A stretch of DNA of 64,000 nt from Nitrososphaera sp. (GCF_036397675.1 NZ_DASWIL010000038.1:21849-85848), one strand, 5' to 3'; positions 5,410-56,210 are shown, numbered from the stretch's first letter. The notes: a model not told the origin generated them from the sequence alone. Made by a program: numbers and translations.

Positions 5410-6462
5410 TTGTGGATGGATGTACAGGAACGCCTCGACCTCGTGCTGCGCGACCCGACCGAGGAGGTCATCACGCGTGGCGAGCTTGAAGGGCTTTTCA
5501 AGACCAAGTCGCGCCCGCGCCATTACATCGGCCTGGAGATATCCGGCGCCCTGCATCTTGGCAGCCTCATCCTGACAGGGTTTAAGATTAACGACTTTAT
5601 CAAGGCAAGAATCGACTGCACCGTGTTCCTGGCTGACTGGCACACCTACATCAACGATAAGCTCGGAGGCGACTGGGACAAGATCCGCGAGATATCGCGG
5701 TACTACGCCGACGCGTTCCAGTTCTTTTGCCCCGGCGTCAACATTGTCACGGGCAGTGACTTGTACAAGAAAACGCCGGAATACTGGGAGAATTTCGTGC
5801 GCTTTGCCAAGCACATGACTCTTGCAAGGACTGTGCGCTCGCTCACGATAATGGGGAGGAAGGAGACGGAAGGCATGGACCTCGGGCAGTTGCTGTATCC
5901 GCCGATGCAGTCCGTAGACATCAAGGCGCTGGACCTTGACATCGTGCACTCGGGGATGGACCAGCGCAAGATCCACATGCTTGTACGAGAGGTGTTTCCC
6001 AAGATGGGCTGGAAGCCGCCGGTGTGCGTCCACCATCATTTGCTGCCCGGGCTCGCAGAGCCGGTCAAGCTGGGCCTTGACGAGAACGCCGACGAGGACG
6101 CCAAGATATCAAGCAAGATGAGCAAGACCAAGCCTGCTAGCGGCATACGGATACACGACGACGAGAAGGCAATCCGCGACAAGGTTTCAAAGGCGTTCTG
6201 CCCGGTAGGCATCAAAGAAGGCAACCCCGTGCTGGAGCTTGTGCGCCACGTTGTCTTCCATGAGTTTTCCGAGTTTGTGATAGAGCGACCCACCAAATAC
6301 GGCGGTAACATGACGTACGCAAGCTACGCCGAAGTCGAGCGGGACTTTGTCGCAAAAAAAATCCACCCGATGGACCTAAAGAGCGCGGCTGCGACGTACG
6401 TCAACAGGATAATCGAGCCAGTCTACAAACATTTCAAGGGCAGAGAGCCCAAGCTGGCTTGA
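5410..6462 (+). CDS. tyrS: tyrosine--tRNA ligase, archaeal type
   Basis: Has a HIGH-like block (HYIGLEISGALHLG), KMSKT, QRKIHMLVRE, and a C-terminal PTKYGGNMTYASYAEVERDFVAKKIHPMDLK that closely resembles the M. jannaschii TyrRS sequence as I remember it. Confidence 0.9.
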   Translation: MWMDVQERLDLVLRDPTEEVITRGELEGLFKTKSRPRHYIGLEISGALHLGSLILTGFKINDFIKARIDCTVFLADWHTYINDKLGGDWDKIREISRYYADAFQFFCPGVNIVTGSDLYKKTPEYWENFVRFAKHMTLARTVRSLTIMGRKETEGMDLGQLLYPPMQSVDIKALDLDIVHSGMDQRKIHMLVREVFPKMGWKPPVCVHHHLLPGLAEPVKLGLDENADEDAKISSKMSKTKPASGIRIHDDEKAIRDKVSKAFCPVGIKEGNPVLELVRHVVFHEFSEFVIERPTKYGGNMTYASYAEVERDFVAKKIHPMDLKSAAATYVNRIIEPVYKHFKGREPKLA

Positions 6463-6945: not shown

Positions 6946-8046
6946 TTGATGAACTTACGAATTCAACAAACTCCAGGTAGCTTATCGCCGCAGGTTCGCT
7001 TTTTGCCGATAATTACAGAAATAAACCGCTTGGTTGCTACCATCGACATGGAAAGGGCAGAGTTTGGTGGGTTGTCGGCGTGCAGAATCGTAAACGGCAT
7101 GTGGCAGGTGGCCGGCGGCCATGGCAGGATAGACCCGAAAAAGGCGGTCGAGGAGATGATAAAGTATCACGAGGCAGGTTTTACCAGCTGGGACCTTGCA
7201 GACATTTACGGCCCGGCAGAAGAATTCATCGGCGACTTTAGGCGGCTGCTTGCGTCTCAAAAAGGCAAGGGCGAGCTCGCCAAGGTGCAGGCGTTTACAA
7301 AGTTCGTCCCAGAGCCAAAGAGCATGAGCAGGCAGTTTGTGGAGCGCAGCGTCGAGCTTTCGCGCCGCCGGATGGGCGTCGACTCCATTGACCTGATACA
7401 GTTTCACTGGTGGGACTATTACAACCCGGCGTGGCTCGACGCGCTTGTCCATCTGTCTGAACTCCGCGATAAGGGATTGATACGCAACGTCGGGCTCACC
7501 AACTTCGACACCGCCCATATGCATGACATGGCAGACGCGGGCATCAAGATAGCGTCAAACCAAGTGCAGTATTCAATAATCGACCAGAGGCCGGCGGTCA
7601 AGATGGCTGAATTTTGTAAGAAGAATGGAGTTGTGTTGTTTGCGTACGGCACTGTATGCGGCGGGCTGCTGTCAGAAAAGTACCTCAACAGGCCTGAGCC
7701 GGGGGACGCAGAGCTTGACACGCTGAGCCTTGGCAAGTACAAAAAGATGGTGGACGCCTGGGGCGGCTGGGAGCTTTTCCAGGAACTGCTTGCAACGCTC
7801 AAGGGCATAGCCGACAAGCACAAGGCCAGCGTCGCAAACGTGGCTGCGCGCTATGTGCTTGACAGGCCGTCGGTTGCAGGCGTGATAATAGGCGCTCGCC
7901 TTGGGCTGTCGGAGCACAGGCAGGACAACGCCCGCGTGTTTGGATTTTCGCTCGATAGCGCAGACATGGAAAAGATAGGCACAGTCACTTCCAGGTCCCG
8001 CGACCTTTACCAGCTGATAGGGGACTGCGGTGACGAGTACCGCTAG
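6946..8046 (+). CDS. aldo/keto reductase family oxidoreductase
   Basis: AKR-like blocks WDLADIYGPAEEFIG, IDLIQFHWWD and IRNVGLTNF. The true start is possibly the internal ATG at about 7048 (MERAEFGG...). Confidence 0.85.
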   Translation: MMNLRIQQTPGSLSPQVRFLPIITEINRLVATIDMERAEFGGLSACRIVNGMWQVAGGHGRIDPKKAVEEMIKYHEAGFTSWDLADIYGPAEEFIGDFRRLLASQKGKGELAKVQAFTKFVPEPKSMSRQFVERSVELSRRRMGVDSIDLIQFHWWDYYNPAWLDALVHLSELRDKGLIRNVGLTNFDTAHMHDMADAGIKIASNQVQYSIIDQRPAVKMAEFCKKNGVVLFAYGTVCGGLLSEKYLNRPEPGDAELDTLSLGKYKKMVDAWGGWELFQELLATLKGIADKHKASVANVAARYVLDRPSVAGVIIGARLGLSEHRQDNARVFGFSLDSADMEKIGTVTSRSRDLYQLIGDCGDEYR

Positions 8047-8337
8047 ACGCCTGAAGGCCCGACATCATTTTGAAGTTAGTTAGCCAGAAATGAAAGAAAG
8101 ACTGAAAGCAAGATCTCAAAAAGTAGAAGTACAATTCAAAATCGAATTAGACCGAGTAAAGGGTATCTCTCTGTGAGTTAGCCAAGCCGGACCTTTGGGC
8201 GAAGGTCATGTCTCTTGACAGGAACATCATGTGCGCCTATTTGCTGCACGGTGGGACGCTTGACCACTAGGAAATGCGATAGCAACAGATCAAATGCTCT
8301 GAACTAGAGCTTATATCACCGCTTGCTCAAGGAATCC

Positions 8338-8419
8338 TGCACCGTGATTCCTCCGGCTGTACGCGGGAACCTGTTCCCGGATTTCCGTTCCAGCATGGCA
8401 GGGCTGCTGTCACGGTGCA
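8338..8419. other. candidate structured element: 10-bp closing helix enclosing two hairpins
   Basis: tgcaccgtga (8338-8347) pairs perfectly with tcacggtgca (8410-8419). Inside are the hairpins cgggaa-cctg-ttcccg (8364-8379) and cagca-N9-tgctg (8391-8409). It lies in an 865-nt stretch with no convincing ORF. Confidence 0.25.
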
Positions 8420-8911
8420 AACTATATTATCCAAATTACCTTCATGAGCTTGGGATTTGTATTTGCGATAAAGAACAAACTGTATGTTGCAGAAGCAAAA
8501 GCTTTCCAGTGACGCCACTTTAAGTATACTAATAGACAGAAGACCGCAATCGCGATGCCGTACACTTCTAGTATGGACTCGATAATCACTATTCAGCCAG
8601 CTTTAGCTCAGGAGCTTCTTTCCTATGTCTACTCTCATTACAGACAAATCAATTAAAACGATGACATCATGCTTTTATGGCAGTGGAAAGGATCGACCTC
8701 TATGTTGCCTTGTTCAGGACATAGGGGCATCCTCTTTCACTCCTAGTCATGTCCCTTAATCGAACAGTATCTATCTCTGCAAGGCTTAAGAATGTGTGGT
8801 TGCATCGCTATATGACCCCGTCTGGAGCCCATAAAATGTTCCGCAATTCACTACATAAAACTGGGGAGGAAAGGAGAATGGGAAAGGGAATGTATTGAAG
8901 ATGAGGGAACC

Positions 8912-9757
8912 TTGCGGCTCGGGTTTATGGAAGCGAATCATCAGGATTGTTTAAACGGGAAGTGGGATTCCGTCTATCGAACCTTTCTACAGGGAAAGAA
9001 CAAGAAAACTCCATCTGTAGCTACATCCTTTTTAAATCAAATAAAGAAATTCTACCAGTCAGATGAAGGCGTACTTTGGATTACATTCTATGGTAACGAA
9101 ATGTGGTGGTGCTTTTCAAAACCGGAAATAACTCAACTCGGCGATAAATCAAAGATTCGGCCTGTCATAGGTAAATGGCATGATACAACAATTGATGAAA
9201 AGACCCCTTTAGTCACAGAAAGCTTGCGGGGTGATCTGCTCAAGACCCAAGGATTTAGGGGCACCATTTGCGATGTGAAAATCAAAGAATACGTAATCAA
9301 CAAGATCAACGGAAAGGAACCAGAGGAGGTAAAGGCGACTGTCGAAGCAATGCGTGAGCTTGAAAGTAGGGTGGCTACCCTAATCACAAAGCTTCGCTGG
9401 CAAGATTTTGAAACGCTAATTGATCTCATTTTCAGAGAGGCAGGATACAATAGGACAAGCGATGTGGGCAAAACTCAGAAGACTTTCGACTTGGACTTGA
9501 TTTCGCCTGTAACCGGTGAATGAATTATGGTACAGGTAAAATCACAATCGGACCTTGCCTCATATGAGGAAGACTGCAAGGAATTTGAAGCTATGAAGGG
9601 TTATGACAAGTTCTTTTATGTTGTTCACAGCCCTGATGAATCCCTGAAAACACTTCGGAATCGTGAAGGTCATATCAAAGTAATGTTGGCTGATAATCTC
9701 GCGCAAGTGGTTATTGATTCTGGGCTGGTTAGATGGTTGGTATCGAAACTTGGATAA
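8912..9757 (+). pseudogene. Mrr-like (PD-(D/E)xK, Mrr_cat-type) restriction endonuclease-like gene interrupted by an in-frame TGA at 9521-9523
   Basis: ORFs 8912-9523 and 9527-9757 are in the same frame, separated only by TGA plus one codon. The joined sequence reads WQDFETLIDLIFREAGY...FDLDLISPVTGE*IMVQVKSQ. This is the W-x-FE, G-x-D and QxK layout of the Mrr catalytic domain, with the stop falling between the D and QxK motifs. Confidence 0.6.
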
Positions 9758-9829
9758 CCACCAAGATTGATCAAACGACTTGTTACAATGATAGGATCAA
9801 ACGCTGACGTTACAGAACCGACAAAACTG

Positions 9830-9874
9830 TTTAAATATGTTCTATTAGGCCTACCTAATTAGGCCTACCTAATT
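9830..9874 (+). promoter_or_regulatory. TATA box (tttaaata, 9830-9837) followed by a perfect tandem 14-mer (aggcctacctaatt x2, 9847-9874) running into the ArsR-type gene start
   Basis: Read directly from the sequence. The repeats cover the expected transcription start (about 25 nt after the TATA box) and the TTG/ATG start region. Confidence 0.5.
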
Positions 9875-10223
9875 GACCATGAACGCTCTCACATTTAACA
9901 ACCACGACGTCGCGATGCCCCTTCTGCAGGAGCTTGTCGACGGCGTCTCACACCGGATAATAATGTCCACGATAGACGCCGCCAAGACTGCCGCGCAGCT
10001 GTCTTTAGAAAATTCCCTCCCGCTAAGCTCCACCTACAAAAAGATCAAGAAACTCCAGGAGGCGGGCATGCTGTCGGTGGAAAGGATAGAGCTTGACGGC
10101 AAGGGCAGGAAGGTCGTCTATTACAGGAGCAGGATAAAGTCGATGAAGTTCAACCTCTCCCGCGATCAAGTTCTGCTTCATATTGAGAAAAATGACTCGC
10201 GCGCTTCGCTTTCTGTAAAGTAG
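9873..10223 (+). CDS. ArsR-family winged-helix transcription regulator
   Basis: Has a small wHTH pattern (HRIIMSTIDAAKTAAQLSLENSLPLSSTYKKIKKLQEAGMLSVERIELDGKGRKVVYYR). The start is TTG 9873 or ATG 9878. Confidence 0.75.
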   Translation: MTMNALTFNNHDVAMPLLQELVDGVSHRIIMSTIDAAKTAAQLSLENSLPLSSTYKKIKKLQEAGMLSVERIELDGKGRKVVYYRSRIKSMKFNLSRDQVLLHIEKNDSRASLSVK

Positions 10224-12670: not shown

Positions 12671-13105
12671 AATGTACCTACAAAGTCAGGTACCAAGAGG
12701 CATGTACTGACCGACCAGAAAGGAGTTCCATTGTCCGCCGTTATCACGGCTGCCAACACACATGACATGAAAGCAGCTGTGGAAACGCTGGACAGCATTG
12801 TAGTGAAGAGGCCACGTCCAAGGAAGTACAGGAGGCAGAACCTGTGCCTTGACAAGGGGTACGACTTTCCAGAGATAGCCCGGGAGGTTGTCAAAAGAAG
12901 GTACCTGCCGCACATCCGCCACAGAGGTGAGAAGAGAAAGAAGCGGCGATACAAAAGGAGGCGGTGGGTCGTAGAGCGGACCAATTCCTGGCATAACAGG
13001 TTTAGAAAATTGCTTGTCAGGTACGAGAAGAAATCGGAGAACTACCTGGGGCTGGTGCAGTTGGCCTGCTGCATCATTGTTTACAGGAGGTTAATTTTGG
13101 GATAG
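12671..13105 (+). mobile_element. IS5-family (DDE_Tnp_1-type) transposase remnant, C-terminal portion only
   Basis: The open frame from 12671 reads ..PTKSGTQRHVLTDQKGVPLSAVITAANTHD...CLDKGYD...RRRWVVERTNSWHNRFRKLLVRYEKKSENYLG. The N-terminal half is missing. A short HTH-like piece (LLTQIRQLLYQGQSKDDILRSLDIS) survives in another frame at about 12550-12650. Confidence 0.7.
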
Positions 13106-13427: not shown

Positions 13428-14405
13428 TTGCAGTCATTTCTTCTAAGAAACAAGACAAGAAAGACATATCTTGAATCATTGCTGTCGTACGCGGCTTCTT
13501 CAAGAGCGAGTTATCAGTCTGCATTGAATCGATTTGAAGAATTTTGCGCATTTTTTTACGAGGGAAGAACTTCGGATAAAATCGTCACTGAACTTAAATC
13601 TATTCCCATAGAGCATAGGGATGATGCATATTTCGGAGTATTGCAAGGTTATGTAAACTGGCTCTTGAAACGCAATTTATCACATAAGACAGTAAACAAT
13701 CACTTCAAGATAGTAAATCACTACTTCAACTTTCATGGAATTAGGGCTTTTCCGGCAGATTTGCGGCGGAATGTCAATAGACCAAAAGAAATCAAGGAAA
13801 AACTGCATCCCCTAACACTAGATGAGATTCACAGACTCTTTTCCTGTTCCACCCCAAAACGCAGGATGCTCTATCTCGTCTTGATTGGGAGCGGTATGCG
13901 CATTCGAGAATCTGTGTCTTTACGGAAGAAGGACTTTGATCTAGACTTTTCGAAAAGAATCAAGATAGACATTCCCGCCCAAAACACCAAGACCAAGGCC
14001 GCGCACACGACATTCGTTAGCAAGGAAGCATCAAAATCTCTTATTCCGTATCTAGATTCGCTTCAATCAGATGATCTTGTTTTTGCCACCAACGAAAATC
14101 CCTATCATGCTTCGATGACTGAGATCGAGGCATTTACAAGATGTCGAGACAGTGCAGGGCTGAGGGACAAGTACTCATCCGCAAATCGTCATCATATTAC
14201 GCTTCATTCGTTCAGATCGTATTTCTTCACAAGAGCGAGACGAGTGCATGATACAGACATAGCGCATGCAATGGTGGGTCACACACCGTATCTTGATATG
14301 TATGACAGAAAGGACGATGTTCAGAAGTTAGAACTGTTCTTGAAAGTTGAGCCGAGTCTTGTAATAAAATTCCAGCGAGACACTACGGGCACGAATACGT
14401 CCTAA
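13428..14405 (+). CDS. tyrosine recombinase / phage-type integrase (apparently intact, 325 aa)
   Basis: Has an N-terminal core-binding-like domain. The catalytic residues appear in order: LIGSGMRIRE (Arg), TLHSFRSYF (H-x-x-R), MVGH and LDMYDR (Tyr). The local composition is AT-rich. Confidence 0.85.
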   Translation: MQSFLLRNKTRKTYLESLLSYAASSRASYQSALNRFEEFCAFFYEGRTSDKIVTELKSIPIEHRDDAYFGVLQGYVNWLLKRNLSHKTVNNHFKIVNHYFNFHGIRAFPADLRRNVNRPKEIKEKLHPLTLDEIHRLFSCSTPKRRMLYLVLIGSGMRIRESVSLRKKDFDLDFSKRIKIDIPAQNTKTKAAHTTFVSKEASKSLIPYLDSLQSDDLVFATNENPYHASMTEIEAFTRCRDSAGLRDKYSSANRHHITLHSFRSYFFTRARRVHDTDIAHAMVGHTPYLDMYDRKDDVQKLELFLKVEPSLVIKFQRDTTGTNTS

Positions 14406-21600: not shown

Positions 21601-23699
21601 TTCAGGATTATCCTGGCGTCGACCACCCTGGCGCCCTTGCCTTCTTCAAGCACAAGGAGCGGGTTGATGTCAAACTCCTTTATCTCCGGAAAGTCCACGA
21701 CCAGTTGCGACAGGCGCTGCAGCGAGTCCGCTATCGCTTTCAGGTCGGACGGCTTTTCGCCCCTGACGCCTTTTAGCAGTTTTATGGTCTTTATCGACTC
21801 GACCATCTTGGCGGCTTCCCGCTCGTCTATGGGGGCTACGCGGAACACCACGTCCTTGAGAACTTCGACATAGATGCCCCCAAGCCCGAACATTATAACG
21901 GGCCCAAAGGTAGGGTCCTGGCTTGCGCCAAGTATCGTCTCTTTTGCGGACTTGACCATCTCTTGGACAAGCACGCCCTTTATCTTGGCGTCGGCCTTGT
22001 ACTTTTTCGCGCTCTCTATTATTGCCCGAAACGCCGCTTTCAGTTCGTCATCGCCCTTTATCCCCACGCGCACGCCGCCGGCGTCAGATTTGTGGATGAT
22101 GTCCGCCGATGCTATCTTCAGGACCACAGGATATCCGATTTCATTTGCCGCCTTGACGCACTCTTCCTCCGTTACGCCAAGAATGCTCTTTGGAGTGGGA
22201 AAGCCGTACGCCTTCAGGACTTCATAGCCCTCTTCTTCAAGCAGGTTGTTTCTGCCCTGCTTTTTCACTCCTTCAAATATCAACCTGACCTTTGCAGCGT
22301 CCTTTGAGAACTGGAGCGTTCCGGCCCTTGTCCTTGCGCCTTCAACCCACGCCTTGAACTCGTACATGGCCTTTAACGTCCTTATTGCAGGCTCTGAATA
22401 AAGGTAATAAGGCACGCCGCCTTCGGACATTATGGCTCTGTTCTCCACGCCTTCGGCAAGGCCCATGAGCGACGCAAGCAAGGTCTTGTTCGGGAACTGC
22501 GTAGACATTTTCACGAGCACGTGCGCAAGGTCGTCGTAGTTCAAAGTCGCCGACGGAGTGCACATCGTGACGACAGAGCCGACGGCAGGGTGCGCAAGCA
22601 CCTGCACCAGGACCTGCTCGAACCTGTTAAAGTCGGCGTCGCCGACGATGTCCACGGGGTTTCTCGGCGAGCCGTATGCTGGTATCACCTTTGCTATCGA
22701 GTCGCGTATCGACGAGATGTCGGCCATCTTTAACCCGTACTTTGAGCAGGCATCAGTCGAGATGATGGCAGGCCCGCCGGCGTTTGACACTATCACCACG
22801 CCGCCTTCAGGCAGCGGCTGCTTTGAAAATGCTGTGGCAAGGTCAAAAAGCTCGCCCATAGTGTCCACCCTGATGACTCCGCACTGCGCAAACGCGGCCT
22901 CATAGTTTGCATCAGAGCCACCAAGTGCCCCCGTGTGCGAGGCCGCTGCCCTGGCCCCTTCTACACTCCTGCCCGCTTTCAAAACGATGACCGGCTTGCG
23001 CTTTTCCGTCGTTATGCGCTTTGCTACGTCCATGAAGCGCCGCGCGTTGCGAATGTCTTCAAGGTACATGACGATTACCCGCGTGTCATCGTCCTCGGCA
23101 AGGAGCTCGAGCACGTCGCTTTCGTCCATGTCCACCTTATTGCCCATGCTGATGACCTTCGAAAAGCCGATGTTCTGAGCTTCTGCATCCTCCACAGTGG
23201 CCGCACAGATGGCGCCGCTCTGAGATACGAGCGCGACGTTGCCGTACTTGGGCGTTATCTTTAGAAACGTCGAGTTCATGATGTTTTCTTTTGAAAAGCT
23301 CATGATGCCAAGGCAGTTTGGGCCGATGACCCTGATGCCGTATTTTTTGGAAATCTCGCCGACCTCCTTTTCCAGCCTGGCGCCTGCTTCGTCCACCTCC
23401 TTAAAGCCCGCAGATACGATGATAGCTCCCTTGATGCCCTTCTTGCCAACCTCTTCCATGACTGCTGGCGTGAACCTGCTTGGCGCGGCGACTACTGCGA
23501 GGTCGATGCTTTCCGGCACGTCAAGCACGCTCTTGAAAGCCTGAAGCCCGCCCACCGAGGGGTTTGACGGGGTGATGGGGAATATCTTGCCCTTGAAGTG
23601 CTTGGCGATGTTGCTGAAGATGGTCTTGCCTATGCCGGGCTTTTCAGAAGCCCCGATGACTGCTATGGACCTGGGCGAAAAGAAGATCGAGTTGGACAT
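21597..23699 (-). CDS. ADP-forming acyl-CoA synthetase (fused alpha/beta; acetate--CoA ligase [ADP-forming] family)
   Basis: Has an N-terminal CoA-binding/succinyl-CoA-synthetase-like part (SIAVIGASEKPG, GPNCLGI, SQSGA) and a C-terminal ATP-grasp part (GYPVVLKIAS...HKSDAGGV). Length is 700 aa. Confidence 0.9.
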   Translation of the reverse strand: MSNSIFFSPRSIAVIGASEKPGIGKTIFSNIAKHFKGKIFPITPSNPSVGGLQAFKSVLDVPESIDLAVVAAPSRFTPAVMEEVGKKGIKGAIIVSAGFKEVDEAGARLEKEVGEISKKYGIRVIGPNCLGIMSFSKENIMNSTFLKITPKYGNVALVSQSGAICAATVEDAEAQNIGFSKVISMGNKVDMDESDVLELLAEDDDTRVIVMYLEDIRNARRFMDVAKRITTEKRKPVIVLKAGRSVEGARAAASHTGALGGSDANYEAAFAQCGVIRVDTMGELFDLATAFSKQPLPEGGVVIVSNAGGPAIISTDACSKYGLKMADISSIRDSIAKVIPAYGSPRNPVDIVGDADFNRFEQVLVQVLAHPAVGSVVTMCTPSATLNYDDLAHVLVKMSTQFPNKTLLASLMGLAEGVENRAIMSEGGVPYYLYSEPAIRTLKAMYEFKAWVEGARTRAGTLQFSKDAAKVRLIFEGVKKQGRNNLLEEEGYEVLKAYGFPTPKSILGVTEEECVKAANEIGYPVVLKIASADIIHKSDAGGVRVGIKGDDELKAAFRAIIESAKKYKADAKIKGVLVQEMVKSAKETILGASQDPTFGPVIMFGLGGIYVEVLKDVVFRVAPIDEREAAKMVESIKTIKLLKGVRGEKPSDLKAIADSLQRLSQLVVDFPEIKEFDINPLLVLEEGKGARVVDARIILN

Positions 23700-23867
23700 G
23701 AGAATGAAAAAAGCTTGGGTGTTTATAAATAGCTCATTGCCTGAGACAGGAGACTCGTTGCCGGTGCAACTGCGAGATGATCTATTATGCCCCGGACAGT
23801 TCAGTGAATGATACCAGAAGTGGTTGCATAATGGCTAAATAACATCATTGTGTAGTGCATCAGAGCC

Positions 23868-24080
23868 ATGATCGAGCTCGCAATTTTTGCTGTACTGTTA
23901 TTCTTGGTCGCGATGGTCGATATTCTGCCATTTGAAGGGTCAACACTCACTCTATTGATAATAGCGGCGATAGCTATCGTCGCGCTCGCTATCTTCCGAT
24001 TCCTAATACCGCTCATAATAGCGGTCGTGATAGCTGTTGTGTTGATGATCCTGCTATTTGGCGGAATACCTGTTCCCTAA
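23868..24080 (+). CDS. hypothetical small membrane protein (70 aa)
   Basis: ORF track. Two or three very hydrophobic helices. Confidence 0.4.
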   Translation: MIELAIFAVLLFLVAMVDILPFEGSTLTLLIIAAIAIVALAIFRFLIPLIIAVVIAVVLMILLFGGIPVP

Positions 24081-28124: not shown

Positions 28125-28136
28125 TCCTCCTTTCTC

Positions 28137-28143
28137 TTTTTTT
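28137..28143 (+). terminator. oligo-T tract (T7) 13 nt after the SPFH stop
   Basis: Seen directly. Archaeal RNA polymerase commonly terminates at oligo-T tracts. Confidence 0.35.
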
Positions 28144-28150
28144 GGAAAGG

Positions 28151-28192
28151 TGAAGGGGTTGGGATTCGAACCCATTACCGCCTGCGTGTAAG
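28151..28192 (-). pseudogene. tRNA 3' fragment (positions 32-73: anticodon loop CUUACAC, GCAGG, CGGTA, T-arm ATGGG-TTCGAAT-CCCAA, acceptor CCCCTTC, A73)
   Basis: Read from the reverse complement. There is no matching 5' half adjacent to it. The acceptor 3' strand pairs with the 5' fragment at 31074-31068. Confidence 0.6.
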
Positions 28193-28247
28193 AAGAAGTC
28201 TAAAATCACGATTGATTCATTCTTGTAAAATCTGCCAATTTTTACGG

Positions 28248-28448
28248 CTAGAGCGATTCAGCGAATACTACTAGTACGTTGTCTTGTTTGTTAAACCGAG
28301 CGTATCTGTTTATGGTACCGCAGTTTCCACATTTGTAACACGGCCACCTACGCATACCACCCTTCTCGTTAAATAACTGAATTTGACTATCTGTGGTGAT
28401 TGTGAACTTGACGCTGCACTTTTCACATTGACCTTCGTATTCGGTCAT
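28248..28448 (-). CDS. hypothetical zinc-ribbon protein (66 aa)
   Basis: Contains CEKC...CYKCGNCG, i.e. CxxC plus CxxCxxC. Confidence 0.5.
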   Translation of the reverse strand: MTEYEGQCEKCSVKFTITTDSQIQLFNEKGGMRRWPCYKCGNCGTINRYARFNKQDNVLVVFAESL

Positions 28449-28848
28449 TGACTCATTCTCTCAGAAGTACTAAATGAGGCTAACGGGCAAAAAGGTGAAA
28501 TGAAGTTGGTACCATTATGCTCCCCCATGTCGGCAAAGCCGCCCACACAACCCACGTGATTAAATTAGTAAATCGTATGGCCCCATGCTTCGCTTGTCAT
28601 CTTGATAAATATGTTTGAGTGCATACATACACGCTCTTAGACACACTGGCAACCGTGGCACGATCCCTCTCTGCAAGAATCGAGCGTCAAAACACCCTGA
28701 TAAGTTTCAAATTACGTACAGAATCCACGTTCAGGTTGGCCTAGGTGTTTCTTATAGGCAATACATATGAGCAGAGATGTCTTATGCCGTGTTGCAGCGC
28801 CTTAGCCCACTGTACAATGTCTAGATAGGTAAAGCAAGAAAGTAGGTT

Positions 28849-29214
28849 ATGCAAATTTATAGACAAGTACCGCCTTATTGCGTGCATAAGTTGGGCAACT
28901 CTAAAGCGATAAAAATTGATTTTTACATACCAACAAGAACCAAAAGCGGCGAAGACATAGACCCCAAGAGGGTTGACAAGATTATAGATCAGATTTGGCC
29001 CAAGTACCAAGGCGCTACAAAAGTGAGGGGCACTGGCTATTTCCGTTCAAAGTCAGGCGAAGATGAAATTACAGATAGTTATGTGCTGTCAATAATTACA
29101 GAACATGATAAAACAACCAATCTTCACTTACAGCATTTTAAACAAAAGATAAGAGAAGAATTGCATCAAGAGGCGGTGCTAATAACTTGGCATTATGTAG
29201 AAGAAGTTTGCTGA
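28849..29214 (+). CDS. hypothetical protein (121 aa)
   Basis: ORF track. AT-rich codon usage and no motif I can name. Confidence 0.45.
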   Translation: MQIYRQVPPYCVHKLGNSKAIKIDFYIPTRTKSGEDIDPKRVDKIIDQIWPKYQGATKVRGTGYFRSKSGEDEITDSYVLSIITEHDKTTNLHLQHFKQKIREELHQEAVLITWHYVEEVC

Positions 29215-29314
29215 ATTAGCGGCCGTAGCTTTTCGCCCGCCGTGCATAATTTCGTAGGTTGTAAATTGCAGGTCAGCTATAACACTTATTTATCATGAAC
29301 TTGTAATTCTCAAT

Positions 29315-29491
29315 GTGTCGTCTAAAAAGGCCAACAAATCTAAAGAGAATGACATTCTACGCAAATACTATAACGAATTTGACGATGACACGGTAGAATC
29401 ATTGAAGCGGTACTACAACGTCGAAGATTCAGCCAACACCGATTTAATGAACTACATTAAAAGACGTCGCGCGACGTCACCGGCAGATTAA
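29315..29491 (+). CDS. hypothetical small ORF (58 aa, GTG start)
   Basis: My own translation gives VSSKKANKSKENDILRKYYNEFDDDTVESLKRYYNVEDSANTDLMNYIKRRRATSPAD. Confidence 0.2.
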   Translation: MSSKKANKSKENDILRKYYNEFDDDTVESLKRYYNVEDSANTDLMNYIKRRRATSPAD

Positions 29492-30061
29492 TGATAATTG
29501 CATTTGAAAGTATCCCGCTTGTCATGACATTAAGAAGCGGCTACGGCCTCAATTGAACATGAGCAATGCATATGCTATTTAATTATACAACATCTGTGCT
29601 TATGCGCTATGCGGTATTTCGACGTGCATAAAGTCATTCGAAGCCATAACCTTGCGCGCGGGGTCTTTTACCCACAAGCGGGCACGAGTTAAGCTATTCT
29701 TCAGACCGTATTTGTGCAATGAGTATTTGCTATTGAAAATATCATACAGAAACGTTTTTGCATCATCTCATCGGCTATTCGGTGCATCTCGCTCTTGTGC
29801 AGCTTTAGGTCTTTCAAAGAGCCAAAAAGGCGCCCACAAATACCACAGCTACATGATCTACCAGCCATGAACTAAACCTCGGCACAATTCAGTCAAAGGG
29901 CAGTGTTGCAAATTATGTCAATTCAGAGCAGTATATTGTGTAAAAAAACATTATGATGTAGTAAAGACATACTATAATGTATCAATACCCGGCGCGCCGC
30001 TAGCGGTCGATGCGAACTACAGAATCTTTAATAGCATTATCTAAGCAGTTCTGCACGAACT

Positions 30062-30442
30062 TTGACAAACATTGACAATTTCTGTGCTCGCATGTTAACC
30101 CTAGACAAGGGCATAAGGTTTGTTGGCGTAGCAAACAAAGAAGCCAAGATGATTGGTAGTGCCTACCGAGAGGGCTTGAGACCATTATTGAACCCTAGTG
30201 AGACTGAAATGTCAATTTTGCAGTCTATAATTAGAATGGGCACTCGCGAAACACTCGAAAAAAAGCTGGGTGAAACTGTCTATGCGTTTGCGATGTACAA
30301 GAAAGTCAAGAGGGTGGCGGTACCACTAAGAAGGTCGTCTAAAATTACTCACATTCTCATGGCGTCTTTTGACATAAACGTAGACCACGAGCCGATTATT
30401 CTTACGAAGATATTGCCAGAATTAGAACAGCTTGCTATGTAG
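30062..30442 (+). CDS. hypothetical protein (126 aa)
   Basis: ORF track. It is followed by an imperfect inverted repeat, aaggcaacagtg...cactgtgcctt, at 30445-30501. Confidence 0.5.
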   Translation: MTNIDNFCARMLTLDKGIRFVGVANKEAKMIGSAYREGLRPLLNPSETEMSILQSIIRMGTRETLEKKLGETVYAFAMYKKVKRVAVPLRRSSKITHILMASFDINVDHEPIILTKILPELEQLAM

Positions 30443-30684
30443 TATAAGGCAACAGTGCTTGATTGCAGGGAACTTTGTTAAGGCAAAGTTTCTCGCATCA
30501 CTGTGCCTTGCTCATGTTCAAAGATTGGTGCAGCTCGCCTTTCTGACAAAGGCGGTATTTACCTGATAGCGCGCAGAGGCGGACATGCTTGCTACAGGTA
30601 ACAGGTGCAGATTAATTGGCTGGCCGTGTTATGGAGCGTAAGCCACGCATATGGTATTTAATTACAGAACGCATATGAAATAAG

Positions 30685-30759
30685 TGGGCGGCGGGTGATT
30701 TGAACACCCGACCACCGCTGTGTAAGAGCGGTATCATAACCGAGCTAGACCAGCCGCCC
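30685..30759 (-). tRNA. tRNA-Val (anticodon UAC), 75 nt, no intron
   Basis: Hand-folded as GGGCGGC TG GTCT AGCTCGGTTA TGAT A CCGCT CTTACAC AGCGG TGGTC GGGTG TTCAAAT CACCC GCCGCCC A. The acceptor, anticodon and T stems are perfect. A TTTATAA box lies about 24 nt upstream (30783-30789). Confidence 0.9.
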
Positions 30760-31025
30760 GATGATTGCAAATTCGTATGGCCTTATAAATTGCAAACGAT
30801 AGCAGCTCTTTACTACGTATGTGCCGGCAAATAATGGTTGGGCAAGGCTCGTAACCATACAAGCTTTATTGACCGCATGCGTTTTAGTAATACGATGTTA
30901 GCCGCTCTTGATACAAACACAGCGCATGCTGCAGACATACAAACCGTACACGAGACGGATGCGAAACGTACACAGAACGCATGCAAAAAAAGCAATGACG
31001 AGCGAAGCTGAGCACAAAAAAACAT

Positions 31026-31074
31026 GACCACCTGCGTGCAAGACAGGTATCCTACCAGTCTAGACAACCCCTCC
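31026..31074 (-). pseudogene. tRNA 5' fragment (positions 1-48: GGAGGGG TT GTCT AGACTGGTA GGAT A CCTGT CTTGCAC GCAGG TGGTC), followed by ATG and T7
   Basis: Read from the reverse complement. It has a complete acceptor 5' strand, D arm and anticodon arm (loop CUUGCAC) but no T arm. A T7 tract (plus-strand A7 at 31016-31022) follows 3 nt after the fragment. Confidence 0.6.
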
Positions 31075-31157
31075 GGCGATTGCCGGACAGTTCGGCTGGA
31101 CGGTATCAATAGTATTTGTGAATCTGAAATTAGGATTATATACGGCGGACGAAAATC

Positions 31158-51561: not shown

Positions 51562-52920
51562 TTGGAAAGGTTTGACCTCATCGTAATCGGCAGCGGCTCC
51601 GGCCTTGACGTCGCAAACGCGGCTGCGCGGGGAGGAATGAAGGTGGCCATAATAGAAAAGGACAGGATGGGCGGCACGTGCCTCAACAGGGGCTGTATAC
51701 CGTCCAAGCTGTTGCTGCACAGCGCAGACGTGATGGAGACCATCAGGACCGCCAGCACTTTTGGCGTAAACGTCGGGAGCGTGGCAGTAGATTTTGAAAA
51801 GATAATGCGGCGCACCTACGGCATCGTCGATCCCGACGCGGAAGGAATACGCCAGGCGTTTGGCAGCATCGACAACCCGATGCTTTTCCACGCAGAATGC
51901 AAGTTCGTCGGCAAAAAAGAAATAGCAGTCGCAGGCAAGACGATAACCGCAGACAGGATCCTGATTGCAAGCGGTACGAGGCCGGGCGTGCCCAAGATAG
52001 AGGGGCTTGACGGGTTGGGATTCATAACAAGCGACGAGGCTCTTAGGATAAAGAAACAACCGAAGGTCCTGACCATAATTGGCGGAGGGTACATCGCCTG
52101 CGAGCTGGCGCACTTTTTCGGCGCGCTTGGCACCAAGGTGAATATCATACAGCACAGAGACGTACTCCTAGCAGACGAAGATGAGGAAGTCTCAAAGAGG
52201 TTCACCGAGGTGTTTGCAATGAAGCATGGAGTCTACACCGGCTACAACCCCACGTCGGTTTCAAAAAAGAGCGGCAACTTTGTGGTGAGTGCAAAGGGCG
52301 AGCAAGGAAAGGAGATAAAGCTAATGTCGGACCAGCTCCTGATTGCTACCGGCAGGGTGCCAAACTCTGACACGCTTGACGTTGTGAAGTCCGGCGTCAG
52401 GACCGACAAGGCAGGGTTTGTCAAAGTCGACGAATATCTTGAAACAAATGTTAAGGGGATATTTGCGCTTGGCGACGCCGTCGGACGGTACATGTTCAAA
52501 CACTCTGCAAACCACGAGGCGCAATACGCGTACAACAACCTAGCAAGGCAGAAAAAGGTAGCAGTGGATTACACGGCTATGCCCCACGCGGTGTTTGCGT
52601 CGCCGCAGGTAGCCGGAGTAGGGCAGACCGAGCAGGAGCTGAAGGAAAAAGGGGTGCACTATTCCAAGGCCGTTTACCCTTACATTAATACGGCGATGGG
52701 CGAGGCGCTAGAGGACAGGGACGGCTTTGTCAAGCTCTTGGTGTCTCACGACCGCAAGATCCTAGGCTGCCACATAATCGGGAGCGACGCGTCGGTGCTT
52801 ATACACGAGGTGTTAGTGGTCATAAAGGCTGGATTAACAGTAGATGTCATTGCCAACACGGTGCACATACACCCCGCGCTATCGGAGGTGGTTGCAAGAG
52901 CGTCGTATTCTATTGAATGA
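51562..52920 (+). CDS. FAD-dependent pyridine nucleotide-disulfide oxidoreductase (dihydrolipoyl dehydrogenase / glutathione-reductase family)
   Basis: Has DLIVIGSGSG (FAD), the redox-active disulfide GGTCLNRGCIPSK, a second Rossmann motif IIGGGYIACE, and a C-terminal dimerisation HxxxxE-like HIHPALSE. Confidence 0.85.
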   Translation: MERFDLIVIGSGSGLDVANAAARGGMKVAIIEKDRMGGTCLNRGCIPSKLLLHSADVMETIRTASTFGVNVGSVAVDFEKIMRRTYGIVDPDAEGIRQAFGSIDNPMLFHAECKFVGKKEIAVAGKTITADRILIASGTRPGVPKIEGLDGLGFITSDEALRIKKQPKVLTIIGGGYIACELAHFFGALGTKVNIIQHRDVLLADEDEEVSKRFTEVFAMKHGVYTGYNPTSVSKKSGNFVVSAKGEQGKEIKLMSDQLLIATGRVPNSDTLDVVKSGVRTDKAGFVKVDEYLETNVKGIFALGDAVGRYMFKHSANHEAQYAYNNLARQKKVAVDYTAMPHAVFASPQVAGVGQTEQELKEKGVHYSKAVYPYINTAMGEALEDRDGFVKLLVSHDRKILGCHIIGSDASVLIHEVLVVIKAGLTVDVIANTVHIHPALSEVVARASYSIE

Positions 52921-53037
52921 TAGTGGGTTCTGGTACTTTTCCTGAGTATTGTTCTCTGGATCAGTCATTGATTCTGAATAGGCAGACAGATCTATAAGCC
53001 TTACCACGAGGTTGATAGCTTCTAGATATATAGGCAG

Positions 53038-53625
53038 TTAATGAGTCGTGCTGCTGGTTCCCTGCGGAGTCTTTCTTGCTCCGACATACTTTACTGCTCC
53101 AATTATTAGGCACACAATTCCGGCAATAATAAGCACTATTCCCACCAATATTCCAATACCATAGGCGATAAGATTCTGGATTGTTGGATTATCTTGTACA
53201 CTAACACCACCACCTTGTTGACCGATTGGCAAGTTCAGCAGTGCGCCGCTAATGGTAACAGAGCGCGAACCGACATTCTTTATTTCTAGCGTATGGTCGC
53301 CAGAAATCTCGGTTGTTGCTGGGCCAGTAAAAGGAGTCTCATTTATGTCGTATGTCGTCAACACCGTCCCATCTGGCTGGGTTAGCCGAGCCTGAAGGGG
53401 TACATCGGTAGGATCACCTGAAAGTGAGAGTAAGAGCTGTTGACCTGCTGGAAGATCCGCTAATACTGCTACAATTGAAAGATTAGGTTCCAGTGAAGTA
53501 CTGTCGATGATGGTCGATCCTTCCAAGACTTGTTTAGTAACGCTAAAGGTTGAGACTCCTGCAATGACTAGACCTACTGCCAACAATACTCCGCCAATAA
53601 TGAGAAGAGGGATACCAGGCTTCAT
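53038..53625 (-). CDS. hypothetical bitopic membrane protein, paralog of 25682-26266
   Basis: Has the same N-TM / beta ectodomain / C-TM plan and a shared block (RLTQPDGTVLTTYDINETPF...GDHTLEIKNVGS). Codon usage is AT-rich. Confidence 0.6.
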   Translation of the reverse strand: MKPGIPLLIIGGVLLAVGLVIAGVSTFSVTKQVLEGSTIIDSTSLEPNLSIVAVLADLPAGQQLLLSLSGDPTDVPLQARLTQPDGTVLTTYDINETPFTGPATTEISGDHTLEIKNVGSRSVTISGALLNLPIGQQGGGVSVQDNPTIQNLIAYGIGILVGIVLIIAGIVCLIIGAVKYVGARKTPQGTSSTTH

Positions 53626-53831
53626 AACGCTCGTTCATGGCGTGAACTATTATCTCTTGCGCTCCAGATAGCACAAAAGTTGACTAGGCTGGACCCTGAA
53701 AACTATGAATCAGATAAACATGGTCCTACGGTTAGTACATCTCCAGAGCGTGACGTTCTGGATTCTGTTACCATGAACGTTACAACAATAAATGTAGCTA
53801 TAAAGTCATCGCTTGTTCCCTGCAACCACTC

Positions 53832-53990
53832 CTATCGATTTTGACTGCGGACATGCGTCTGTACATATGTTAACCCTGCTTTCTCTAGCAATACCGCGTA
53901 TTCTTTTTCTGTTCTTTCCCTTCCAGTGAGAGCACACATCAGAAAGCAGATTTGGTGATTCGGGGTTATTTGGAAGACCTGGCGCTGGAT
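53832..53990 (-). pseudogene. C-terminal fragment of a SAM-dependent O-methyltransferase-like gene
   Basis: My own minus-strand translation gives ..NHQICFLMCALTGRERTEKEYAVLLEKAGLTYVQTHV*. This resembles the xxGxERTxxExxxLLxxAGF tail of class-I O-methyltransferases. An in-frame stop lies just upstream and there is no N-terminal part. Confidence 0.35.
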
Positions 53991-54060
53991 TTAATCATCG
54001 TATGTTGATAGACAAAACAGATCTGTAAGGATTTCTAATTAAGAAACTTCTATATTAGCG

Positions 54061-54201
54061 GGTTATCAGTCATACCGTAACTACGTTAGACCGCATGAAG
54101 GGTTGAAAGGAAAGACACCCTCCGAAACATGTGGGATAACAGTAGAGGGTAAGAACAAATGGCTATCAAAAATTCAGAGCGCTATGAAACGATGGGGCTA
54201 A
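54061..54201 (+). pseudogene. C-terminal fragment of a DDE (rve/IS-type) transposase
   Basis: My own translation gives GYQSYRNYVRPHEGLKGKTPSETCGITVEGKNKWLSKIQSAMKRWG*. The xRPHxxLxGKTPxE tail is typical of integrase-core transposases. An in-frame stop lies 7 codons upstream. Confidence 0.45.
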
Positions 54202-54277
54202 CCGCAAGCGGACAAGCTATTCTAGAGTTTGTGGACCTCTCTAAGCAGATACATAATTCTGTAAATGATGTATTTGG

Positions 54278-54520
54278 TCAATCCTTCAGTGATTGAATCT
54301 GTTTTTTCAATGCTATGTTTTCTACATACAGGTCCTCGATGTAGCCGTAAACGTCCTTTAGAATAGTCGCATAGCTTACAAATAATCTTGCGTTAGACCC
54401 TAGAAATTCATCTCGGGGATATCTGGTGGCAAATTCTTCTAGTATTTTCTGGTATTTCTCCAGCTCGCTTCTTTTCGCTCGAAATTCCTCTTCTAACGTG
54501 CTAAATTCTTTCTTAACCAT
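54278..54520 (-). CDS. hypothetical coiled-coil protein (80 aa)
   Basis: ORF track. Heptad-like E/K/L-rich sequence. Confidence 0.45.
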   Translation of the reverse strand: MVKKEFSTLEEEFRAKRSELEKYQKILEEFATRYPRDEFLGSNARLFVSYATILKDVYGYIEDLYVENIALKKQIQSLKD

Positions 54521-54658
54521 TACAACATGATTATCTATCAGGGATTTACCTTTTTCGTTCCTATCACCTGCCAGTCAATACGGACATTTATCGCCCATCA
54601 AGTTAACAAAGCCTAGGTCAGATATCCTTTTAACTTGCAAGCCAGATAACTCGCCTGA

Positions 54659-55090
54659 TTGAGTAGGGATAGCCCCAAAGATTCCCTTATTGCTACAGTC
54701 GATAGATTGTTGGAGATTCATATTGACGTTACTCGAAAAGAAACGGACAAAACACCTATAATAGAACTGAAAAAGGACTTGGTCGAGTTGCGCGAAGTGC
54801 TAACCGAGTTTAATGCCGCTGTTCTGAAGTTCGCTTTTTCAGAGCCCGGTACTGACCCAGAGAAAGCGAAAAGGGCTGCAGATATTTTGACTAAAGTGGT
54901 AGGCAAGAGCATTCTTAACTCAAGGGATGTGGCCGTCGCAGGGATAGTATCCATAGAACTTGCAATAGCCGATATAAGGGACCCTGACCGAATGACCAGT
55001 TCCATAGCTTCTATAATTGCTAACTCGATGGTGTCCAATGGATGCATTGAGGGTCTCAAGAATTTGAGACAGGTGCTACTGTTAATCTAG
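54659..55090 (+). CDS. hypothetical protein (143 aa)
   Basis: ORF track. Helical, with no motif recognised. Confidence 0.45.
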   Translation: MSRDSPKDSLIATVDRLLEIHIDVTRKETDKTPIIELKKDLVELREVLTEFNAAVLKFAFSEPGTDPEKAKRAADILTKVVGKSILNSRDVAVAGIVSIELAIADIRDPDRMTSSIASIIANSMVSNGCIEGLKNLRQVLLLI

Positions 55091-55113
55091 GCCCTAGCAT
55101 CCACGTGAATGAT

Positions 55114-55620
55114 CTAGCAATTCTCGCAGTATTTTTTGATGAATTCCTTGTGGCCCAGATTGAGATATTCAAAATATGTATCGTCGATCATTTCCATAGA
55201 TTTCTGAAGATGCAATATCTCTTGTTTGCATTCAGATGTCCAACCGTGACATACCTCGGCAAAGGCTCCGGTACCAGAGTTTCCAGATTTGAGATATTCG
55301 GCTGCCAAGCCTCTTGCTATTCTTGACCTACTGGGACCTTTTTTGCGCATCTCTTCCGATACGTCGGACACTCCCGCCACATTCTCGCGAGAGAGGACCA
55401 TGGAAGAAACATTTGAGTGGGTAGCAACCATAGACCGAACACCGACCAGGAATTGTTCAAGAGCCTCAATAGACATGGATCCGAGCGCTCCGACGTTGAT
55501 TCCAAGCCTCTGCAGTTCTTGCAGGAGTTCATACCCTGACCTGGGAGCGTTGTTCGGGGTCTCTACGTTCGATTCAACGGTCTCCTCTTCAATCAAGATA
55601 TCCTTTTGCTCGGTCTTCAT
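55114..55620 (-). CDS. hypothetical protein (168 aa)
   Basis: ORF track. No motif recognised. The C-terminus has a C-x-x-C (YCENC). Confidence 0.5.
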   Translation of the reverse strand: MKTEQKDILIEEETVESNVETPNNAPRSGYELLQELQRLGINVGALGSMSIEALEQFLVGVRSMVATHSNVSSMVLSRENVAGVSDVSEEMRKKGPSRSRIARGLAAEYLKSGNSGTGAFAEVCHGWTSECKQEILHLQKSMEMIDDTYFEYLNLGHKEFIKKYCENC

Positions 55621-55855
55621 TAGGCTCTATAGGTAGTGGTATCATTTAAATCTATCTTTAAAGTAACATATGAAGTATCTAATAAAGGATACTAGCCCGA
55701 AAAGACTCCATTCGCGAAATAAAGTAAGACCCCTCAAAATTTTGGCTCCTCCCAGGGGGCCTATACTCCCAGATCCTGCCAAAAGGGTGCCGGTTAAGGT
55801 TAAGATGGGAGTTAACTGTGCCCAAAAGAGCCCCATCGCACGTAAGGACTGGACC

Positions 55856-56143
55856 CTACACAATATTTTTCAAAATTCTAGAATTACTGGGTACAGACTG
55901 ATTCCTACCCCAGTCAGATAGGAGCGGAGAGCATCGCATCTTTTGATAGGCCATGAACCTGAAGGCCATATCAAACGCCCAATCGATGTCCTTTTTGCCC
56001 CTTTCAACAAATAGCCTGGCTTTGTCTTCTAGAGAGCCTTGCATTCCAATACCGGTCAGGAAAAGGTCCAGTTTGCTTCTGTACTGTCGTCTAGTCTCTG
56101 GACTCGCAATAGAGCCAAGAAATAGCCCGAGTGGGTCCCTCAT
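55856..56143 (-). pseudogene. tyrosine-integrase N-terminal (core-binding/SAM-like) stub, 95 aa
   Basis: SIASPETRRQYRSKLDLFLTGIG parallels YAASSRASYQSALNRFEEFCAFF of the intact integrase at 13428. No catalytic domain follows. It starts 68 nt from the tRNA-Lys 3' end. Confidence 0.45.
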
Positions 56144-56210
56144 TGAGACTGCCTGTTCCCGCTTCCCAATACCTCACGGTTGTAGTCCAAAATAAAGCTG
56201 GTTAAAGTAG

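Follow-up and report, generated by a model that had tools for sequence, protein, structure and literature searches.

A stretch of 64,000 nucleotides (nt) of DNA from the soil archaeon Nitrososphaera sp. (NZ_DASWIL010000038.1:21849-85848), referred to below as the window, holds two pieces of a transfer RNA (tRNA) gene, named X and read as being of tRNA-Val(UAC) type, at the two ends of an AT-rich, foreign-looking insertion of 2,829 base pairs (bp), and inside that insertion an intact tRNA-Val(UAC) gene, V, which has its own promoter. The arrangement looks like a tRNA gene caught mid-swap by mobile DNA, the order of events not being settled. We lean, if only slightly, towards a family of histories in which a resident X was inactivated by one or more site-specific insertions that imported the V cassette, with V now doing the job of X. 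DNA carrying the V cassette inside X is the topology common to all workable histories. That X was the resident and V the import, that a recombinase was at work, and how many events there were and in what order is what we infer from the anatomy of the locus and its comparison with relatives.

The two halves of X and the repeat they share

The 5' fragment of X occupies 31023-31074 on the minus strand and comprises tRNA positions 1-51; positions 1-48 (31074-31026) read GGAGGGG TT GTCT AGACTGGTA GGAT A CCTGT CTTGCAC GCAGG TGGTC, the anticodon triplet is TGC, and a run of seven T (T7) follows directly. It was recognised by reading the sequence, from joins called by ARAGORN and with the Rfam tRNA model, which gave 15.9 bits (E = 0.47) over 31005-31074 and found no match in the 3' half. 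The 3' fragment, also on the minus strand, lies at 28151-28193 and comprises positions 31-73, of which positions 32-73 (28192-28151) read CTTACAC GCAGG CGGTA ATGGG TTCGAAT CCCAA CCCCTTC A; its anticodon is TAC, and its last base is 26 nt from the stop codon of the neighbouring SPFH gene. In a blastn comparison, homology between the window and a sister lineage, L003, extends to window position 28149, at the end of this fragment.

When 5' positions 1-31 are joined to 3' positions 32-73, ARAGORN calls a 74-nt tRNA-Val(tac), with the anticodon of the 3' copy; when 5' positions 1-48 are joined to 3' positions 49-73, it calls a tRNA-Ala(tgc), with the anticodon of the 5' copy. ARAGORN called no tRNA on either half alone, or at either end of the insert. 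The joined molecule pairs at 7/7 positions in the acceptor stem (including G2:U71 and A3:U70), 4/4 in the D stem, 5/5 in the anticodon stem and 4/5 in the T stem. A preliminary description of this DNA had taken the two minus-strand pieces for halves of one tRNA with fully pairing acceptor strands, and in this it was right, its sequences included; the one mismatch of the T stem, A49/A65, was absent from it. The clues to the isoacceptor are TAC in the 3' copy, TGC in the 5' copy, A3:U70 instead of G3:U70, and A73; the lack of G3:U70 and the presence of A73 presumably favour Val over Ala, given the general identity elements. On their sequence, the two pieces are overlapping halves of a single 74-nt gene of tRNA-Val(UAC) type.

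X is dead, a pseudogene pair rather than a functional split gene. The older caveat that the disrupted copy may be an old pseudogene fits the data, since T7 follows its 5' half and no good TATA box precedes it. Unusual tRNA introns are numerous in archaea, Thaumarchaeota among them, and in some archaea tRNA genes are split; together with the 7/7 match of the acceptor strands, this is what could be said for an X that still functions, its halves being either joined in trans as a split tRNA or separated by a giant intron of 2.8 kb. We find that hardly credible, and rejected it, because the halves overlap by 21 nt and form no bulge-helix-bulge junction, the duplex of their flanks (-27.6 kcal/mol) is no better than shuffled controls (-33.4 +/- 4.4), T7 stands directly after the 5' half with eight runs of at least five T on that strand between the halves, a good TATA box is missing, and a promoter-driven tRNA lies between them in the same orientation. 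A residual 3' part of the tRNA directly after the 5' fragment was considered and also rejected: the sequence there, TTTTTTTGTGCTCAG..., has neither a T arm nor an acceptor strand, the Rfam model's forced 70-nt alignment reaches only those 15.9 bits, and 5/7 acceptor pairs are about what chance gives, by our own estimate and not that of a tool.

The overlap of the halves forms a 21-nt direct repeat (DR1). Its left copy, c1 (TCTTGCACGCAGGTGGTCATG, 31023-31043, minus strand), equals X positions 31-51 and is a candidate attachment-site core; its right copy, c2 (TCTTACACGCAGGCGGTAATG), lies at 28173-28193 on the same strand. The repeat is imperfect, with 18/21 positions identical as first reported, and covers the anticodon loop, the 3' anticodon stem and the variable loop of X. 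It is the top repeat family of the region; allowing up to three mismatches, it occurs at two places only in the 64-kb window, and two or more matches were obtained in 0/100 shuffles. DR1 thus has the form of flanking direct repeats derived from the target tRNA, as for attL/attR. Attachment (att) sites of thaumarchaeal elements typically span 8-26 bp (median 17 bp), so 21 bp is typical, and 39/68 mapped elements target tRNA genes (PMC6563490). Regeneration of the target tRNA at one end of the insert was not seen with ARAGORN or Rfam, T7 following c1. Excision by c1 x c2 would be expected to leave the circle junction ...GACTTCT-core-TTTTTTTGTG....

A transposon or casposon with a target-site duplication was considered for the same repeat and rejected: the insert ends carry no terminal inverted repeats, there is no transposase, and the repeat is imperfect (18/21). 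A 14-nt inverted repeat at 28587-28600 and 30995-31008 was likewise rejected as a pair of terminal repeats, since its position is asymmetric and chance alone should yield about one such pair (our estimate).

The SPFH/PEF-CTERM slot and the inner tRNA

Loci of relatives were recovered with the SPFH protein as probe from sister Nitrososphaera lineages (L003, L011, L019, L020-L025 and L026-L028; SPFH identity 81-87%). The same gene order was recovered in these: M20 peptidase, tautomerase, SPFH, PEF-CTERM protein, pterin dehydratase and ABC transporter. All sampled sister lineages have exactly one tRNA-Val(UAC) between the SPFH and PEF-CTERM genes, and this spacer is therefore the clade's slot for tRNA-Val(UAC). 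The insertion is missing from all of them (blastn, loci fetched), and it is carried by all contigs of the window's own lineage (99% identity; L001, L002, L013, L017 and L018, from at least three samples). The slot tRNA of L003, L011, L019, L026 and L028 is 100% identical to V, and these five lineages are as divergent from each other as from the window lineage. L020-L025 (including the L020-L022 clade) have a second allele, V', in which 14-15 of 75 positions are unlike V and the stem changes are compensatory. From these comparisons, the slot tRNA seems to turn over through the abrupt replacement of one allele by another.

It is X, not V, that stands in the register of this slot. The left anchor is the motif TATATAATCCTAATTT at 31127-31142 (given on the minus strand), which forms the TATA region of the plus-strand PEF-CTERM gene and is identical or near-identical in all relatives. 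From this motif to the start of X there are 52 nt, and to the start of V' in L020-L022 there are 53 nt; from the end of X to the SPFH stop codon the distance is 26 nt, and in relatives it is 22-34 nt. The 3' flank, D (CCTTTCCAAAAAAAGAGAAAGGAGGA, 28125-28150, minus strand), a T-run/A-run spacer that separates the tRNA slot from the SPFH stop codon, adjoins the 3' end of X directly and is homologous to the flank after V or V' in the relatives (in L021 its counterpart is CTTTTTCAAAAAAAGAGAAAGGGGG). The 52-nt spacer itself, P* (31075-31126, minus strand), is GC-rich and without a good TATA box; it shows TTGATACCG at the TATA place, where relatives have TTTATAAGG. Its similarity to the promoter of V is weak (p about 0.01-0.02 in gapped alignment; 37% identity ungapped).

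The number of differing positions is 26-27 between X and V and 23-25 between X and V'; X keeps 20/21 stem pairs, counted across the halves. The stem differences between X and V are mostly compensatory (pairs 3:70, 4:69, 7:66, 29:41 and 30:40), which argues that X evolved as a working tRNA and is no decayed V.

The inner gene V lies at 30685-30759 on the minus strand, as do the pieces of X, and is recognised by ARAGORN and by Rfam (57.6 bits in a sub-window scan), in line with the intact tRNA and TATA promoter reported for it before. Its promoter, P (TATCGTTTGCAATTTATAAGGCCATACGAATTTGCAATCATC, 30760-30803, minus strand; TATA box at about 30783-30789), has a TTTATAA box some 25-30 nt before the first base of the tRNA, and the stretch of about 40 nt preceding the tRNA, GTTTGCAATTTATAAGGCCA...TTGCAA, is conserved in relatives. 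P is homologous to the slot promoter in all relatives, with blastn identity of 89-90% over 30682-30799, a 33-nt match at 94% to L019, and alignment scores of z = 6-13 (p <= 0.0005). Given this conserved promoter and the 100% identity of the tRNA, the V cassette is the clade's ordinary chromosomal cassette and no exotic element gene, so the earlier view of V as the inserted element's own gene has to be given up. The cassette would then be either captured and imported or a plain resident gene, and V is probably the sole functional tRNA-Val(UAC) of the genome. The block upstream of the promoter (30804-31022) shows no homology, beyond the promoter, to the small open reading frame (ORF) and spacer upstream of the tRNA in L003 and L026.

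A whole-window Rfam scan at the gathering threshold missed V and reported a tRNA-Lys alone; this is an effect of the speed filter, and it bears on how negative scans are to be read.

Several further features of the slot were seen in single lineages. The distance from the PEF-CTERM promoter motif to the tRNA promoter varies by lineage (16 nt, about 57-64 nt, or about 400-430 nt), and L003 (11259-11591) and L026 (2179-2496) have there an ORF of 105-110 amino acids (aa) whose ends are hydrophobic by eye. L019 has an unusually short spacer of 11 nt from the tRNA to the SPFH stop and, upstream of the tRNA promoter (about 6280-6310), 23 additional nt, CGGGCCGCGGTCTGGTAGTTTGC, with a GTTTGC repeat on either side; by eye these look like the 5' end of a tRNA, but they were not significant in shuffle tests. 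Remnants of X in the spacers of relatives ('GGGCCGCGGTCTGGTAG' in L019, 'CCTGTCT' in L011) were considered and dropped (p = 0.08-0.5).

Within the window's own lineage, a contig (L001/L002) is identical to the window over 24.0-42.6 kb and has 122 mismatches within window positions 22724-24000. This cluster suggests a strain-level recombination tract in an acetyl-CoA synthetase-like gene. Against strain L017, the insertion shows 11 differences in 2.65 kb and the left flank 57 in 5.0 kb, the insertion being the less diverged.

A rooted single-gene neighbour-joining tree places the window lineage as sister to all V and V' lineages, and unrooted multi-gene trees are compatible with that placement. 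Parsimony, as applied to these alleles, does not tell whether X or V is ancestral.

The insert and the histories it allows

The insertion between the DR1 copies (28194-31022) has a G+C content (GC) of 0.42, against 0.53 for the window; between 28200 and 31100 GC runs at 0.38-0.47, with flanks at 0.52-0.60. The AT-rich insertion of about 2.83 kb that had been described is therefore real, and its absence from the sampled sister lineages agrees with it. All ORFs in 28150-31080, and all stop-to-stop fragments there of 40 aa or more, were scanned with Pfam and PHROG; no recombinase or integrase was found, in agreement with the earlier statement that the insert has none, and the same scans gave no integrase remnant, replication gene or mobile-element hallmark in it. 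A search of the insert against virus, plasmid and integrated-element collections had been proposed; blastn against phage and plasmid collections gave no match, and in viral contigs no relative of two of its proteins was found.

These two are a 121-aa DUF3574 protein (28849-29214, plus strand; Pfam 27.4 bits, cut-off 25) and a 126-aa protein with a Roadblock/LC7 (MglB-like) fold (30062-30442, plus strand; predicted local distance difference test score, pLDDT, of 87.5; Foldseek E = 3e-6 to Roadblock and MglB structures). Homologs of the former in Nitrososphaera (59-81% identity) have an ordinary chromosomal context. The latter has 22 homologs in a family found in Nitrososphaera only, with one member in another AT-rich island that has no tRNA. 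No tRNA linkage was seen in the genomic contexts of either set of homologs. The remaining ORFs are a 66-aa zinc ribbon (28248-28448, minus strand) with two CxxC pairs and weak Pfam and PHROG matches, a 55-aa C2H2 zinc finger (29701-29868, minus strand; Pfam zf-C2H2_6, E = 8e-4, below cut-off), and a 58-aa ORF (29315-29491, plus strand) called as a gene in public contigs. The 58-aa ORF has no family match. The description of the insert's ORFs as small orphans, a zinc ribbon among them, does not hold for all of them, in view of the Nitrososphaera homologs of the DUF3574 and Roadblock/LC7-fold proteins.

The DNA around V is repetitive. A second 21-nt repeat, DR2, has its right copy (CTTATTTCATATGCGTTCTGT, 30664-30684, minus strand) beginning at the first base after V and its left copy (CTTTTTTTGCATGCGTTCTGT, 30972-30992, minus strand) 30 nt after c1; the pair brackets V, its promoter and about 170 nt upstream, and its 17/21 identity was reached in 1/2000 shuffles anywhere in the insert. 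A cluster of short direct repeats of the form (G/T)CAT(AT)GCG..TGT (30650-30992, minus strand), with five starts at 30984, 30929, 30880, 30677 and 30653, lies on both sides of the V cassette. The three occurrences of the pattern ATGCG[CT]T[CG]TGT in the 64-kb window all fall within 330 bp around V, and CATATGCG occurs twice on the window's minus strand, both times in this cluster, which may be iteron-like or a putative regulatory or regulator-binding site. From DR2 and the cluster around V it follows that the insert is composite and went through two or more recombination events. The short-repeat cluster is overlapped by a 40-nt repeat (29552-29591 and 30631-30670, 78% identity).

In the histories that we favour, an element would earlier have picked up the V cassette, promoter and tRNA, from the chromosome of a V-type relative; as the cassette is an ordinary chromosomal allele of the sister lineages, it was probably captured from such a chromosome. 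The inserted DNA, a small, cryptic, integrase-less composite island, would have entered X at its anticodon arm by a tyrosine-recombinase-type site-specific insertion with the 21-bp core, without regenerating the 3' part of its target, and the imported cassette would now supply tRNA-Val(UAC). X may have been lost in the insertion event, which the cell could tolerate only if the cassette arrived with it; or, in a more classical variant, a tandem array of two related elements may have kept X intact, the redundant X later losing its 3' part. In the array variant one element would carry the full V cassette as its tRNA-like arm and the other X positions 31-73, which would account for DR2. The repeats on both sides of the cassette, together with DR2, support this family of histories in that they place V within one repeat-bearing element. 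An exact 23-mer of the X 3' arm was found in a metagenome scan in this lineage only, apart from unrelated tRNA-Gln genes in AT-rich contigs with tRNA gene arrays, a distribution that suits a resident allele confined to this lineage better than the arm of a widespread element. One 20-mer from the repeat matched a protein-coding phage gene, a match we set aside as irrelevant.

A number of points weigh against a resident X and an imported V. An uninterrupted X was not found in the slot, every sampled relative having V or V'; of the interrupted slot gene that had been proposed, the tRNA slot between the SPFH and PEF-CTERM genes and the relatives without the insertion stand, but what those relatives hold is never an uninterrupted X. 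V is identical across five sister lineages, and vertical inheritance alone predicts V as the resident here too. V also keeps a strongly conserved native promoter, and the sequence upstream of X resembles that promoter weakly. The insert has no integrase; no free or other integrated copy of the element and no phage-type attachment site (attP) form turned up in viral-contig, metagenome, phage and plasmid scans, and exact-pattern scans of viral contigs gave no intact X or attP form. Decay is uneven, P* looking more decayed than the X halves with their 20/21 stem pairs if both drifted neutrally. The placement of the window lineage rests on a single-gene neighbour-joining tree with weak rooting, and the simple one-event version leaves DR2 unexplained.

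In the rival history, V would be a vertically inherited resident that never moved, and the pieces of X would be tRNA-like attachment arms of foreign origin, the traces of two or more insertions by related elements from an unsampled lineage with an X-type tRNA-Val(UAC). A first insertion, downstream of V with its crossover in the T-rich trailer, would have left the arm of X positions 31-73 beside the SPFH flank; a second, upstream, for instance by homologous recombination through a captured copy of the slot promoter, would have left P* and the 5' half; and the 21-nt 'repeat' would be the mere overlap of two partial copies of the same tRNA type. Vertical descent does predict the 100% identity of V in five sister lineages and the promoter alignment at z = 10-13, and the sequence upstream of X is indeed weakly promoter-like. 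An attP arm normally does extend from the anticodon loop to the 3' end, the recurrence of DR2, directly after V and again 30 nt after c1, is expected if both are starts of related elements, and small AT-rich islands with short att repeats do occur at tRNA 3' ends in this genome. We nevertheless regard this history as possible but rather unlikely. It calls for three or more events, one of them an upstream insertion that has no standard mechanism, arrays growing downstream of a tRNA, and it makes the complementarity of the fragments, their overlap in exactly the anticodon-arm core and the register of 52 against 53 nt a coincidence or by-products. There is, moreover, no convincing repeat between the 3' end or trailer of V and the far junction (CTTATTTC against CCTTTCC), whereas the tRNA-Lys island in the same window does show a classical short repeat, and scans of metagenomes and viral contigs gave no occurrence of the X arm outside this lineage. 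That the inner tRNA is simply native, so that the finding collapses, was accordingly dropped as a settled conclusion in view of the slot register of X, and retained as the main rival.

The preliminary description had gone further than a resident X and an imported V, suggesting a self-contained element that destroys its tRNA target and brings a replacement. Such a purpose-built element would, as its normal life cycle, use a 21-bp attP to enter tRNA-Val(UAC) in mid-gene, breaking the gene and making good its loss with a tRNA-Val cassette carried by the element. The cargo matches the target in isoacceptor, the position of DR1 is the usual anticodon-arm sublocation, c1 is followed by T7 and not by a regenerated target, and the cassette has a canonical TATA promoter, all as that reading would have it. 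We consider it improbable, as a special case whose probability is contained within that of the favoured histories and does not add to it. The arrangement occurs once, in one lineage; the insert has no integrase, replication gene or other mobile-element hallmark, and no relatives in viral contigs or in phage and plasmid collections; its cargo genes are homologous to chromosomal or island genes of Nitrososphaera and its cassette is the clade's chromosomal allele; and the nested DR2 points to a patchwork history. With chromosomal-type cargo and at least two recombination events, the self-contained version is not upheld.

Other islands occur in the window. A tRNA-Lys(CTT) gene of 93 nt, probably intron-containing, lies at 56210-56302 on the minus strand and is followed by about 3 kb of AT-rich DNA (window 52900-56302). 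A 14-nt repeat overlapping its 3' end (56203-56216) recurs at 54051-54064, with a weaker copy (CCAGAACCCACTA) near 52925-52940, and the locus resembles a classical array in which two small islands have short att sites. The window's only integrase is a 325-aa tyrosine integrase at 13428-14405 (plus strand; Pfam Phage_integrase 47.6 bits, with SAM-like N-terminal domains), which adjoins a DDE transposase fragment (12731-13105, plus strand) in a separate AT-rich island at about 12.5-15 kb. Neither a tRNA nor a copy of the 21-nt core lies near this integrase, whose action in trans on other islands is conceivable in principle. A further AT-rich island, at 8000-10200 (GC 0.43-0.46), holds a 203-aa ORF with a weak match to Mrr-type restriction endonucleases and a 116-aa helix-turn-helix ORF.

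Implications and known systems

It is conceivable, though we hold it with considerable doubt, that small mobile DNA in Nitrososphaera enters the anticodon arm of tRNA-Val(UAC) without repairing it and delivers a promoter-equipped cassette from a related chromosome, later deletions leaving the cassette in the slot. If true, this would be a mechanism for the in-place horizontal replacement of tRNA genes, and could explain the abrupt switches of slot allele among closely related lineages, in which V, V' and X differ by 14-27 nt. Mobile elements that target tRNA genes are generally understood to repair the gene they cut. A broken target, with a whole tRNA of the same function supplied, would show a route of in-place horizontal tRNA exchange and how a host becomes dependent on inserted DNA. 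It also bears on the old idea that mobile elements break tRNA genes, a proposed origin of split tRNA genes. For annotation, the locus is a warning, with the functional tRNA-Val(UAC) inside the island and two tRNA fragments flanking it. If the rival history, with V as the resident, is right, it is an ordinary, decayed integration hotspot.

The closest comparison is with the integrated elements of Thaumarchaeota (Krupovic et al. 2019, PMC6563490). Here as there, a small AT-rich island sits in a tRNA gene of the same host group, flanked by short direct repeats (here 21 bp), with a cargo of small uncharacterised ORFs and an insertion missing from related genomes. The cryptic integrated elements of that survey encode an integrase by definition, unlike the present insert (PMC6563490). 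The present repeat, moreover, covers positions 31-51 only, the target is not regenerated and both fragments are incomplete, and a promoter-plus-tRNA cassette of the same isoacceptor inside the element is undescribed in that work.

Sublocation classes of tRNA-targeted integration were reportedly laid out by Williams in 2002. As in classical tRNA islands and prophages, the repeat here begins at the boundary of the anticodon stem-loop, which is the common anticodon-loop crossover sublocation, the displaced 3' tRNA fragment lies beside the original downstream flank, and a tandem or composite structure is possible. Unlike in the classical islands (Islander, PMC4383910; Thermococcaceae examples, PMC9897764), there is no 3' patch, and restoration, if any, comes from a separate complete tRNA gene 265 nt further in. 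A 5' fragment is also left behind here, and classical integration gives none.

Nanoarchaeum and Caldivirga have split tRNA genes, for which breakage by mobile elements has been suggested. The locus resembles them in its two separate same-strand halves with a perfect acceptor-stem match, and a mobile-element insertion at the anticodon region is a plausible cause here. It differs in that the halves overlap by 21 nt and have no complementary joining sequences, in that the 5' half lacks a good promoter, and in the working gene for the same isoacceptor nearby. The inner cassette, for its part, recalls capture by aberrant excision, as in specialised transduction, in that the promoter, tRNA and about 9 nt of trailer of related strains' chromosomes lie within element DNA; in contrast to such capture, no donor configuration was found, and the cassette has a 21-nt repeat of its own, DR2, on both sides, a feature not expected from simple aberrant excision. 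Seen once and without an integrase, the locus differs from known tRNA integration in that neither fragment is complete, the core is internal, and the insert contains an entire promoter-driven tRNA with the same anticodon.

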